Part shown: positions 1,108 to 22,200 of the stretch, in pieces | Layout: every line of letters begins with the position of its first letter | Position numbering within the stretch: the stretch's first letter is position 1 | Assembly: GCA_951406725.2 (NCBI GenBank) | Contig: OX597836.1 | Coordinates: 26,350,001 to 26,414,000, forward strand | Source of the DNA: Octopus vulgaris | Lineage: Eukaryota | Length of the DNA: 64,000 nucleotides | Direction of reading: 5' to 3' | Position numbers and translations under genes: made by a program | Notes under the pieces: model-generated | What the model saw: only the letters and a program-made list of their open reading frames with translations | Database searches by the model: none | Told to the model about the DNA's origin: nothing

Positions 1108-1248
1108 ATTGTCCTGATCAAAACGAACATTGTCCTTATTGGGCCGGTAACGGGGAATGTGACAAGAGCCATAAATACATGTATTACAACTGTAAGAAAT
1201 CCTGTCAATTGTGTGACTCCCCGCCTCCCAATCCAGAAGTAATGGAAA
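1108..1248 (+). CDS. Gene A ShKT exon A1
   Basis: AG/GT bounded, 141 nt; CPDQNEHCPYWAGNGECDKSHKYMYYNCKKSCQLCDSPPPNPEVME. Confidence 0.9.
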
Positions 1249-4200
1249 GTAAGTTTATCTTTGGCTACTTCTACCCGGTTGACAGTCACATTTCTTGCTC
1301 CACCCGCTTTCTACTTTACTTTCTTTTTTGTAAAGTAACGCGATATTTATAAACAAAATGTAATAGTGACACCCTCCAAATATTTCATAGCGAAGGGAAT
1401 TTTACAAATGGCCGTTGGGATTGGCCTTGATTTGGTAATGGTAGGGTAGATCACTCGGAGTTTCTCGCAAGCAACGTCTGTGAAGTTATTCATAGTTCTC
1501 TAAAATGTGTTTGTATTAGTGTGTGTGTGCCTGTGTGTGTGTGTGTGTGTGTGTGTGTGTGTGTGTGTGTGTGTGTGTGTGTGTGTGTGTGTGTGTGTGT
1601 GTGTGTGTGTGTGTGTGTGAAGGGGTGAAACCTGAATAGCAAATATCCCGTTTTCTTTCCTTGTCCTCTTACAAAAGCAAATCTCGAAATTACGCCCTCA
1701 CAGAGAATCCCACTGGTGTCAAGCCACACAGGTATTCTCTCTTTAATATGATATGAATGATGATATGGCACCGGTGCCGGCAGTATCGTCAACACACAGG
1801 GAGAAATGCTTAAGGGTATTGCGTCTATTTTTACCTTTTCAATTCCAATTTTGCCGCGGTTCATGTTGCTTTCATCCATTCGGCGTCGTCAAAGAAACTC
1901 CCAATTGAATTCTGGTGTCGATGTAATTGATTTATGCCAACCTTCGGAATTATGGACGTTGTGCTAAAATGTAAAACCATGCACGGAGGACTTACATACA
2001 AAGCAACTTACTCTTCGGATTCTTCTACCCGAATGTCAGTCCTTTTTCAATACTCCTAATCTGCATGTTTGTTACAATAATTTTGAGTTCAAATTCCACC
2101 CAGGATGACTTTGACTTTCATCCTTTTGGGGGTCAATTAATTAAGTACCAGTTGCTTTCTGGGGATGAGCTATTCGACAGGGCCCTTCCTCAAATATTTC
2201 TGGCCTTGTGGTAGGAATAGCAAAGAAATGTATGATTAAAACTTGCTACTCCACCAGGGCATCTACCATTAACCTTATTATTATTATTATTATTATTATT
2301 ATTATTATTATTATTATTATTATTATTATTATTATTACTACTACTACTACTACTACAACGACTACTATTATAAGTATTATTATAATTATTATTATTATTA
2401 GTAGTAGTAGTAGTAGTAGTAGTAGTAGTAGTAGTAGTAGTAGTAGTAGTAGTAGTAGTCGTCGTAGTAGTAGTAGTAGTAGTAGTAGTAAAAATAGTAA
2501 TAATAATATAGAAGTTGTTGTTGTTGTTGTTATCAATATTATTGTTGTGGCTGTTGTTCTGGTCGATTTCAGATTGTCCTGATCAAAATGAACATTGTCC
2601 TTATTGGGCCGATAACGGTGAATGTGACAAGAGCCATAAATACATGTATTACAACTGTAAGAAATCTTGTCAGTTCTGTGACTCCCCGCCTCCCAATCCA
2701 GAAGAAATGGAAAGTAAGTTTATCTTTGGCTTCTTCTACCCCCATCTTATTAAACTCTCCTGCTCCACCCGCTTTCTAATGTTATTTCTTTTGAAGGAGG
2801 ATTGTATATATCGATTTTTCGCCTTCTTTCTTCATTACTATTAAGTCAAAGTTGAACGCAACATCAATGATATAGCACATCTGGTGCATCTTGTCCACGA
2901 CATTTGTGTCCCTTCTGTAATATACGTGCAGCTGATCTGTTTGGAATAAGAAATTCCAGAGGATTTTCCAGGATTCAGACTCCGCCACTCTCTGAGATTT
3001 GGGTTCAATCCACGTCTTGTCTCTCTCTAGAACCCACACTATTATCTTTATAATTATTATTATTATTATCATTATTATTATTATTATTATTATTATTATT
3101 ATTATTATTATTATTATTATTATTATTACTATTACTATTATTATTATTATTTTTATTATTATTATCATTATTATTATTATTATTATTATTATTATTATTA
3201 TTATTAATATCATCATCATCATCGTCATCAGCGTCATCATTATTATTATTATTATTATTATTATTATTATTATTATTATTATTATTATTATTATTATTAT
3301 TATTATTATTATCATTATTATTATTATTATTATTATTATTATTATTATTATTATTATTATTATTATTATTATTATTATTAGTTCAAATTCCGCCGAGGTT
3401 AACTTTGTCTTTCATTCTTTCGAGGTCGACAAGTTAAGTGCCAGTTGCGTACTGGGGTCGATCAAATCAACCAAAAATTTGGGCCTGGTGCCTAGAATAG
3501 AAAAGAAATGCCTGATTGGATGTTGATACTGCATCAGGGCATTCATCATTATCATTATCATTATTATTATTAAGTAGTTTTATTTTTATAGCGCGCTTTC
3601 ACTTCACTACCGAGCGCTGCCCTGTGTGTCTTGGGTATGTGCTGTGGTTTGCTGTGATGCTCTTATGGTTACTGTATTGAAAGTGTTTTGCATAGGATGT
3701 GTGCAGAGCTTCGTAGGGCAATTTCCTGTATGATATATATATAAGTACTGGGGTTTTTCTTATGTATTTGTCTGAATATTTTGCATCGTTTATATTTTAT
3801 CTTATTTAATTTTTATTTGTAATCGACTCAATCCATGTGTCTGTCAGTGTTTGTCCCCTCTGTTTTTAGCCCCTTGTGGGTAGTAAATAAACAGGTATTT
3901 CGTCTATTTTCACCTTTTCAATTCAAATTTTGCCGGGGTTCATGTTGCTTTCATCCATTCAACGTCATCAAAGTAACTACCAATTGAATTCTCGTGTCGA
4001 TGTAATTGTTGTATTTGCTGTTTTTGTTCTTTCTGTCGTCGTTGTCGTCGTCGTCGTCGTCGTCGTCGTCGTTGTTGTTGTTGTTGTTGTTGTTGTTGTT
4101 GTTTTTGTTGTTGTTGTTGTTGTTGCTGTTGTTGTTAATATTATTGTTATGGCTGTTGTTCTGGTCGATTTCAGATTGTCCTGATCAAAATGAACATTGT

Positions 4201-19200: not shown

Positions 19201-22200
19201 GTAATGGGGAGTAGATTATTCCGAATTTCTCGCAAGCCACATCTGTGAAGCTATTCATCACTCACTAAAATGTGTGTGCATGGGTATGTCTGTAAAAGTT
19301 GAATAGCAAATATCCCGTTTTCTTTCGTTGTTCACTTCCGAAAACAAATCTCGAAATTACGCCCTCACAGAGAATCCCACTGGTGTCAAGCCACACAGGA
19401 ATTCTCTCTTTAATACGATATGAATGATGATATGGCACCGAGCCGGCAGTATCGTCAACACACAGGGAGAAATGCTTAACGGTATTGCTTCTATTTTAAG
19501 GAGGTGAGTTGGCAGAAGCGTTAGCACGCCGGGCGGAATGCGTAGCCGTATTTCGTCTGCCATTACGTTCTGAGTTCAAATTCCGCCGAGGTCGACTTTG
19601 CCTTTCATCCTTTCGAGGTCGATTAAATAAGTACCAGTTACGCACTGGGGTCGATATAATCGACTTAATTCGTTTGTCTGTCTTTGTTTGTCATCTCTGT
19701 GTTTAGCCCCTTGTGGGTAGTAAAGAAATAGGTATTGCTTCTATTTTCACCTTTTCAATTCCAATTTTGCCGGGGTTCAAGTTGCTTTCATCCATTCGGC
19801 GTCGTCAAAGTAACTACCAATTGAATTCTCGTGTCGATGTAATTGATTTAACCCAAGGATCGGAATTATGGGCGTTGTGCTAAAATTTGAAACCATGCGC
19901 GGCGGACTTACATGTGTAGCGGTTTGCATGCATTCCGGGCTGGCATGCGTAGCGGTTTGCAACCTGCAGCCTTGCAGCCTACGGTGCCATACCATTTGTT
20001 CTCCTCAACTATCTAATACTTTCCTGATTATTCTGGCCGTTCCAATTAGTCAAACCTCTTGTAAAATTTCTACTGGGTACAATATTCCGATTTTCTTCAT
20101 ATTCCCCTTGATACCTTCCGTTACTGTCAACAAGGACCCAACAATAACTGGTACTACCTTCACCTTCTTCATTTTCTATAACCAAGTTACTTCGTACATA
20201 AGAGGATTGTATATATCTACTTTTTCACCTTCTTTCTTCACTATTCTTAAGTCAAAGTGGAATGCAACATCAACAATAGAGCACATGTTGTGCATCTTGT
20301 GCACCATCATTATGTCCCTTCTGTAATGCACTTACACCTGATCTGTTTGGAATGAGAAATTCCAGTGTGTTTGGCAGCTCTCCGACTCGGCCACTCTCTG
20401 AGATTTAGTCTCATTCCACATCTTGTGTATCTCTAGCACCCACACTGTTATCATTACAATAATTATCCTTATTATTATTATTATTATTATTATTATTATT
20501 ATTATTATTATTATTATTATTATTATTATCATCATCATCATCATCATCATTATTATTATTATTATTATTATTTACTTTTAATCAGCATGTCTGTTACAAT
20601 CATTCTGCGTTCAAATTCAGTCGATGTCAACCTTGCCTTTCATCGATAAATTAAATACCACTTGCGAACTGGGGCCAATCTAATCGACATGGCCCCTCCC
20701 CCAAAATTTCAGGCCTTGTGCTTAGATTAGAAAAAAATGTATGATTGAACCTTATTATTATTATTATGATTGAACCTTATTATTATTATTATTATTATTA
20801 TTATTATTATTATTATTATTATTATTATTATCATCATCATCATCATCATCATCATCATCATCATCATCATTATCATTATTATTATTATTATTATTATTAT
20901 TATTATTATTATTATTATTATTATTATTATTATTATTATCATCATCATCTACATTATTATTATTATTATTATTATTATTATTATTATTATTATTATTATT
21001 ATTATTATTATTATTATTATCATTATTATTATTATAATATTTGTTGTAGTTATTATAACTATTATTGTTAGCAATATTATTGTTATTGCTGTTATTGTTG
21101 TCGATTTCAGATTGTCTTGATCAAAATGAGAAGTGTCCTTACTGGGCCGATAACGGGAAGTGTGGAAAGAATCCTAAATACATGTATACTACCTGTAAGA
21201 AATCTTGCAAGGTGTGTGACTCTCCGCTTCCGAATCCAGAAGTAATTGAACGTAAGTTTATCTTTGGCTTCTTCTACCCGGTTGTCCTGCACTCCTCCTG
21301 CTTCACCCGAGTTTAAAAACACAATGAAATAAAAAGAAACACCCTACAAATATTTCATAGGGCAAGGTATTTTATAAATGGCCGTTGGGAGTGGTGTTGA
21401 TTTGAGAATGGTGATTAGATTACTCGGAGTTTCTCACAAGCCACGGGTGTGTGTGTGTGTGTGTGTGTGTGTATGTGTGTGTAAAACTTTGTTTTCTTGT
21501 TTGGATTAACTTTATATACTTACATATATATATATGTGTGTGTGTGTGTGTGTGTGTGTGTGTGTGTGTGTGTGTGTGTGTGTGTGTGTGTGTGTGTGTG
21601 TGTGTGTGTGTATGTGTGTGTGTATGTGTACGTGTGCACGTGTGTGTGTGTGTGTAAAACCTGATCGGCAAAAATCCCGTTTTACTTCATTGTGCTCTTA
21701 CGATAAAATCTCTACACCCCGCCTTCAGAGGGAATCCATTTGGTGTTAAAGAACGCAGGCATTGTCTATTTAATATGATATGAATGATGACAGGGTGGCG
21801 GGTCGATGAACCGTTAGCACGCCGGGCTAAATTTTTAGCGGTATTTTGTCTGTCTTCGCGGTTTGAGGTCAAATTCCGCCGAGGTGTCATTTTGCTTTCA
21901 TCCGTTCAGGGTCGTTAAAGTAAGAACCAGTTGACTTCTCGTGTCGATGTAATTAATGTATCCCGACCCTCGAAATTCTGGCTCCACTGCTCCTCGTTTT
22001 GTTTCTGCCCGTTCTTTTTCACGGTAGCTTGATCCGTTTTGCTTTTTTTCGTGGCAGTCGTTTCAGGCTCTTCATCTAATTCAGGGTTAATCCTAAGTTC
22101 CCTTCCGAATTTTCAAGCTTTTTGTTGCTTTCGTGCTTGCACAAAAGCCGCAGCATTCAGTTCTCTGTACTAGATAATTACTTGTTCAGGGCTATTGTGA

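Follow-up and report, generated by a model that had tools for sequence, protein, structure and literature searches.

What produced a long run of near-identical exons, each of the size of a single ShKT domain, in the genome of an octopus, and what could such a run encode? The question is raised by a stretch of 64,000 nucleotides from Octopus vulgaris (contig OX597836.1 of assembly GCA_951406725.2, positions 26,350,001 to 26,414,000; the window), near the start of which an original prediction, made from the letters of the window, had placed an array of 15 or more symmetric ShKT exons, encoding either one long chain or a combinatorial repertoire of isoforms. We found that the array belongs to the middle gene (gene B) of three tandem paralogues. 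We propose, at about even confidence, that gene B is a protease-less tandem copy of the adjacent astacin gene (gene A), in which one ShKT exon became multiplied to 27, and that its likely product is a long, secreted, consecutively spliced chain of ShKT domains that acts as a multivalent binder or scaffold, and not as a venom toxin. Two things had been overlooked in the original prediction, the two stop codons in gene B and the descent from the adjacent gene, of which the latter is the informative one. All positions are given in coordinates of the window, and negative values continue the numbering upstream (a C23 position is 26,350,000 plus the coordinate).

Extent of the array and its descent from an astacin gene

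All 15 predicted exons were recovered, 141 nt long, in phase 1-1 and with shared splice sites (acceptor ...GTCGATTTCAG, donor GTAAGTTT at each of the 15). The Pfam scan covered 14 of them, the stop-bearing exon 6047-6187 being excluded, and all 14 exceeded the cut-off of the ShK profile PF01549 (27.9-32.9 bits vs 20.9); together with five exons of the downstream gene C (at 56.6-63.9 kb) the profile was passed by 19 of 19 exons scanned. The excluded exon gives a match at 80% in the genome search. As had been suspected, the array extends beyond the start of the window: 12 further full-length exons, six divergent ones (-16555 to -10637) and six near-identical ones (-8644 to -1728), bring the total to 27, all of 141 nt, over 37,807 bp. 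The six Cys residues are invariant across 20 aligned ShKT domains. A structure model of one exon (pLDDT 56.3, helices 8-14, 21-27 and 33-36) was too weak for a fold search. The anticipated upstream signal exon is also present; it starts gene B at -23694 and is followed by pro-region exons at -22019, -19823 and -18379.

From upstream to downstream, the three paralogues are gene A, which encodes an astacin-ShKT protease, gene B, which contains the array, and gene C, which has five domains. Gene A extends from -72935 to about -38200 and encodes the astacin domain; its ShKT exons are three complete ones plus a terminal exon. The O. vulgaris protein P0036 (nas-13-like) aligns to it exon by exon. 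The signal exon is identical in genes A and B (0 of 69 nt different), differs by 1 nt in gene C, and has exactly three matches genome-wide. Exons 2-4 of gene B match exons 2-4 of gene A at 88%, 73% and 72% (with flanks), and they are open, with canonical splice sites; exon 4 contains a basic stretch that we take to resemble a furin site. The catalytic exons 5-9 of gene A match nothing but themselves in 244 kb, and there is no astacin catalytic exon between exon 4 of gene B and the array. The third ShKT exon of gene A with its intron flanks aligns to exons of genes B and C at 68-79%, and by this homology the array repeat is a copy of that exon. The terminal exon and the inferred 3' exon (from 27746) of gene B are likewise homologous to those of gene A. 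Hence signal, pro-region, ShKT, terminal and 3' exons are all homologous and follow the same order as in gene A. Gene C (50766 to about 67100) has the plan of gene B, but its exon 2 is shortened, its ShKT exons number four and its terminal domain is complete; no homologue of exon 3 or 4 was found in it. A domain tree, which cannot order events, separates the internal domains of genes B and C and the O. bimaculoides domains from the astacin and terminal domains (100/97; 35 columns, 24 of 46 inner branches open).

The ends of the three genes are more alike than their interiors. Among the three, about 450 bp round the signal exon (50568-51000; L004 6100-6600; C23:26276999-26277199) are 87-92% alike, rising to 97-99% over 201 bp, and the 3' exon is 86-93% alike, compared with 72-79% for internal exons with flanks. 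Either gene conversion or strong constraint on regulatory ends that the genes share may account for this.

With the astacin (M12A)-ShKT proteases, represented by gene A, gene B thus shares the signal peptide, pro-region, ShKT exon type, terminal exon and 3' exon, and it differs from them in lacking the catalytic domain and in its 27 domains, more than in any of 120 fetched proteins (word-sharing candidates of up to 2,000 aa) in which ShKT domains were counted. Expanded tails are frequent in this family: the highest count among these proteins was 16, in an echinoderm astacin, and for mollusc astacin tails up to 9 ShKT domains are given in the passages of PMC6409789 consulted. As judged from sequence, the array is unusually long and recent.

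Relatives of gene B include predicted O. bimaculoides proteins without a protease, P0013 (A0A0L8HE40) and P0006 (XP_014773035.1), in which Pfam finds only ShK. They have an identical signal peptide and a homologous pro-region, and their domains fall into the same clade, but they contain 4-5 domains and a complete terminal domain; they are automatic annotations, and an array could be collapsed in that assembly. One O. bimaculoides model is a fusion with an astacin-type tail lying upstream, an indication that the tandem order is the same in that species. From O. sinensis, the fragment P0001 (XP_029649777.2) corresponds to the 3' end of gene B, comprising the last part of exon 26 together with exon 27 and the terminal exon, and ends early at the same final residue; a search with P0001 for longer relatives returned none. 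The name of this record, "tyrosinase-like tyr-3", was dismissed as an annotation by ShKT similarity, ShK being all that Pfam finds in it. Further astacin genes with tails of ShKT exons lie at C3:94354938-94441332, C3:55287093-55317790 and C1:56374304-56414759, and of these the pair near 94.4 Mb on C3 carries about 5-6 ShKT exons per gene. Three ShK matches of equal score in 41-aa open frames, megabases apart (C28:10182566, 17973528 and 19764865), may represent a dispersed duplicated gene.

Growth, integrity and splicing of the array

The near-identical exons differ by 0-19 nt, and two pairs (11/14 and 21/23) are identical in DNA, as might be expected if the array had been expanded by the assembler. 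However, the introns that follow the identical exons differ by about 3%, the best intron pairs are at most 97.6% identical, and the longest internal duplicate, of 3.9 kb, has 79 mismatches (96.3%), which leaves no two units alike enough for an assembly duplicate. DNA runs of other studies contain up to 55% of the sampled words, whereas almost none of the unique sequence occurs in the raw DNA reads of X24, of which about 3% were covered. In X2, an independent DNA run, contigs of array type have depths of 90.5 and 93.6 vs 13-16 for those specific to exon 27, a roughly sixfold ratio that should not be read as a copy number, and the assembly contains four-copy classes with the same difference counts as these deep contigs. 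The array is not an assembly artefact, and expansion by the assembler deserves hardly any credence. The introns fall into recurring types in two- and three-exon units, and their order indicates that a three-exon unit was copied once and a two-exon unit several times. This order fits growth by unequal crossing-over of units of one, two and three exons, which we infer to have been the mechanism.

Splicing was observed directly at two junctions of gene B. Contigs of four runs were aligned to 21092-21440 (X9 is RNA by guess; X9 and X16 are from one study). A 163-nt contig of X9 runs up to the final base of exon 27 and goes straight on into the terminal exon, the first 30 letters of which are found at one place in 244 kb, whereas in the DNA run X2 exon 27 continues into the intron with no differences. 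A contig of X16 joins the 3' end of exon 8, which is unique, to an array exon start that fits eight exons equally, exon 9 included, and a second one joins gene C exon 3 to a start of the exon 2/4 type. X9 also contains intronic contigs; run X23 had no contigs on 21092-21440, and the metatranscriptome run X17 matched only simple-repeat stretches. Two other sources of the junctions were considered and rejected: read-through of exon 27 into gene C, since the contig joins exon 27 to gene B's own terminal exon, and a processed retrocopy, since array-type matches in the genome occur at this locus only. Spliced transcripts therefore exist, and the prediction of one spliced poly-ShKT gene stands, with 27 exons and a greater length than had been guessed.

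The second half of that prediction, in which the exons are alternative cassettes that yield chains varying in length and domain order, is improbable. It is true that all exons are symmetric, that a full-length product in this haplotype requires the omission of at least one exon, and that O. bimaculoides P0006 and P0013 differ by one whole ShKT exon, perhaps through skipping or annotation noise. On the other hand, all three junctions seen fit consecutive splicing of adjacent exons (one uniquely; the exon-8 partner is one of eight and the gene C partner one of two), none of them shows a skip, and a combinatorial repertoire finds no support in them, although contigs so short could miss skipping. 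Moreover, the splice sites are of consensus type and near-identical in every copy, the shortest intron has 369 nt, and the variants differ by few residues. Phase 1-1 itself is inherited from the astacin, because the ShKT exons of A and C share it.

Nor does the expectation hold that every exon is exactly one ShKT domain and that any subset of them splices in frame. The fourth exon of the window (exon 16 of gene B) contains an in-frame TGA at 6079-6081, so that a transcript with this exon, in whatever subset, terminates there; in this assembly it is the single array copy so affected. The terminal exon, with a 26-nt deletion relative to its paralogues, also stops early (23994-23996). With all exons included the frame of gene B has 807 aa and ends in exon 16; without exon 16 it would have 1,324 aa and run to the early terminal stop. 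The terminal lesion is shared with O. sinensis and is therefore old enough to have been tolerated. In gene A, the terminal ShKT exon (about -40371; L002 9628-9745) has a 1-nt frameshift and ends after two Cys, as does the annotated P0036; two of the three paralogues (A and B) have lost the terminal domain independently, through different lesions.

Table 1. Exons of genes B and C located in the window
Feature	Position	Strand	Evidence and remarks
Gene B ShKT exon 13 of 27	1108..1248	+	splice sites, Pfam; exons 1-12 and the four 5' exons are upstream, outside the window
Gene B ShKT exon 14	2573..2713	+	splice sites, Pfam; DNA identical to upstream exon 11
Gene B ShKT exon 15	4175..4315	+	splice sites, Pfam
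Gene B ShKT exon 16	6047..6187	+	intact splice sites; in-frame stop 6079-6081
Gene B ShKT exon 17	7064..7204	+	splice sites, Pfam
Gene B ShKT exon 18	8266..8406	+	splice sites, Pfam
Gene B ShKT exon 19	9755..9895	+	splice sites, Pfam
Gene B ShKT exon 20	10752..10892	+	splice sites, Pfam
Gene B ShKT exon 21	12199..12339	+	splice sites, Pfam; DNA identical to exon 23
Gene B ShKT exon 22	13253..13393	+	splice sites, Pfam
Gene B ShKT exon 23	14752..14892	+	splice sites, Pfam
Gene B ShKT exon 24	15764..15904	+	splice sites, Pfam
Gene B ShKT exon 25	17670..17810	+	splice sites, Pfam
Gene B ShKT exon 26	18876..19016	+	splice sites, Pfam
Gene B ShKT exon 27	21111..21251	+	splice sites, Pfam; spliced to terminal exon in RNA-run contig
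Gene B terminal coding exon	23962..24052	+	stop 23994-23996 after two Cys; 26-nt deletion
Gene B 3' untranslated exon	27746..28176, end uncertain	+	inferred by homology to genes A and C; AATAAA at 27850 and 27990
Gene C signal-peptide exon	50766..50834	+	1 nt off genes A and B
Gene C exon 2	53111..53141	+	pro-region exon of reduced length, phase 0-1
Gene C ShKT exon 1	56600..56740	+	Pfam
Gene C ShKT exon 2	58171..58281	+	111 nt; Pfam
Gene C ShKT exon 3	59006..59146	+	Pfam; spliced to downstream exon start in RNA-run contig
Gene C ShKT exon 4	62444..62554	+	111 nt; Pfam
Gene C terminal ShKT exon	63793..63909	+	Pfam; domain complete, normal stop

Most introns of the array carry one interspersed repeat, of which head-to-tail copies occur at 51147-51817 and 53509-54025 (periods of 184 bp and 251 bp). 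Intron 2 of gene B (L004 8230-9640) contains blocks of about 600 bp that are duplicated and inverted. Between genes B and C, 26022-26804 (-) and 40912-41794 (+) are open frames that by eye resemble degraded non-LTR reverse-transcriptase elements. A 300-bp tandem repeat (7.4 copies, 98%) occupies 42155-44379, with a related single copy near 38250-38580; by eye it resembles a retroelement 3' fragment. No tRNA genes were found in the window.

Toxin features and a possible role in mucus

The ShKT fold invites the suggestion that gene B is a venom or defence precursor, the domains of which block Kv1 channels either as a multivalent chain or after being cut singly. A Lys-Tyr pair stands at the ShK/BgK position in 21 of the 27 domains (aligned to BgK and BmK1), and the six-Cys spacing and aligned pair are common to gene B and to BgK (1bgk), BmK1 (2mcr) and MMP23 (2k72). 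The nearest solved sequences are protease-derived, namely 2mcr (E 1e-10) and MMP23 2k72 (E 1e-7); BgK is a marginal match (E 0.058), with its Lys-Tyr aligned with that of the array. Moreover, the first six domains of gene B are basic (+1 to +6). Classical Kv1 blockers are strongly basic. In contrast, the domains of gene B are mostly near neutral, the 20 near-identical ones among them: 19 of the 21 Lys-Tyr domains have a net charge of -2 to +1, and all 21 are followed by acidic linkers (-2 to -4 for the 19), none of which is dibasic. BmK1, a domain of a Brugia metalloprotease, is reported as a Kv1.3 blocker in the section of PMC9699480 cited, whereas the pair is described as neither necessary nor sufficient in that of PMC6409789, and it is also present in the first ShKT domain of gene A. 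Release of single domains is not indicated, as no dibasic pair occurs in 24 of the 27 linkers, among them every one of the 21 that follow exon 6. In this respect gene B differs from the Nematostella NEP3 precursor, which resembles it in being multi-domain but has a Lys-Arg site between domains according to the part of 10.1101/159889 consulted. Furthermore, the copies are homogenised rather than diversified, and no venom-gland evidence was found. A toxin function is thus unsupported, as is combinatorial splicing, and we consider the venom precursor unlikely, marginally more so than the alternative cassettes. No description of this locus was found in the open literature; subscription papers, including much of the work on cephalopod venom, lie outside that search.

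In our preferred reading, after a tandem copy of gene A had arisen without the catalytic exons and one of its ShKT exons had been multiplied, consecutive splicing would be the default, and the product would be secreted, with the pro-region removed at the furin-like basic site. The chain would then probably be released together with the parent protease, possibly into skin mucus. Given that A and B are near-identical round the signal exon, their co-expression is plausible. A peptide specific to gene A (exon 4, which has no close copy elsewhere; the peptide is found in one of the 120 fetched proteins) is represented by one spectrum in the O. vulgaris skin-mucus proteome, according to the supplementary table of PMC10138644. 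This single piece of evidence on location concerns the parent gene and not gene B.

Secreted proteins that consist only of ShKT domains and arose by lineage-specific duplication are also known as C. elegans PHAT and MUL-1, the Toxocara mucins and Cumia multiShKL (passages of PMC2563036, PMC6409789 and PMC13273113). The combination typical of the PHAT and Toxocara proteins, a signal peptide and ShK domains only, is found in gene B. These proteins have 1-4 domains vs 27 in gene B, and an origin from a protease is not shown in the passages on them, whereas here parent and daughters adjoin. PHAT-5 (signal and ShK only) lines the pharynx of C. elegans, in the manner of a mucin-like lumen lining (PMC2563036, in part), and secreted ShK-only proteins of the same animal are described as buffers of oxidative stress (PMC13273113, in part); therefore non-toxin roles have precedent.

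A new gene, or a decaying one?

Variation among the copies bears on whether the array is maintained. Over 190 non-independent pairs of the 20 near-identical exons pN/pS is 0.35, and the 46 distinct variants comprise 15 synonymous and 31 non-synonymous ones. None of the 46 alters a Cys, where 4.5-5.4 would be expected (P 0.002-0.005 under neutrality). It looks as if Cys residues and the frame are kept while other residues drift, and the array would be partly redundant and weakly constrained.

Several observations weigh against the long functional chain that we favour. Gene B contains the two stops described above, together with one 5'-truncated copy near -9985 that also lacks a donor and one acceptor-only copy near -16892. 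From the terminal stop to the last (inferred) junction there are 56 nt, a borderline case for the transcript-decay rule, which has its threshold 50-55 nt before the last junction. The synonymous excess (15/46) is significant at a transition bias of 1-2 (P 0.002-0.013) and not at 4-8 (P 0.06-0.16), and for two of three intron types exon divergence equals or exceeds that of the adjoining 300 nt of intron (0.051 vs 0.048; 0.048 vs 0.033; 0.061 vs 0.119). Only 2 of about 31 junctions of gene B were observed, in runs (X9 and X16) with no recorded tissue. Five motifs of genes B and C are absent among the 3,654 rows covered of the mucus table, for which PMC10138644 gives 5,937 spectra; the rows beyond these may alter the picture, and the search database behind the table may lack B and C. 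Finally, PHAT spacers are Ser/Thr-rich, whereas the linkers of the near-identical copies in gene B, 11 residues long, are Pro/Glu-rich with one Ser.

It is possible, though distinctly less probable than the chain, that gene B is transcribed but decaying, the array being a product of neutral runaway duplication, while gene C carries the function of an ancestral protease-less gene. The internal stop, the early terminal stop with its deletion, the two broken copies and the approximate equality of exon and intron divergence are what decay would leave, and gene C is complete, spliced and closest to domains 2, 4 and 5 of the five O. bimaculoides domains (74-77%). Against decay, the four 5' exons of gene B remain open with canonical splice sites, the exons show neither a Cys change nor a change of length, pN/pS is as low as given above, and the protein encoded by exon 27 is 97% identical in O. 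sinensis in spite of the common terminal stop.

If gene B is instead maintained, it is tantalizing to consider it as a new polymer made from the accessory domain of a protease. About 26 ShKT modules, basic at the start of the chain and acidic at its end, would be expressed from the promoter of the parent astacin, the two free Cys of the cut-short terminal domain could link chains, exon number might vary among alleles and isoforms, and the result could be a tunable, multivalent component of skin mucus that binds channels or glycans. We regard this extension as speculative and rather doubtful.

According to the passages of PMC6409789 consulted, known mollusc genomes, with one exception, lack secreted ShK-only proteins, which are treated as lineage-specific inventions of unclear source. 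They recur in cnidarians, nematodes and one snail; at this octopus locus the source is visible, since a parent astacin stands beside two protease-less daughters that carry its signal exon, and the exon array, at 27 copies, is caught in mid-expansion. The locus presents a testable case of gene birth by domain loss and exon multiplication, even if gene B may be decaying, and provides a natural panel of ShKT variants.

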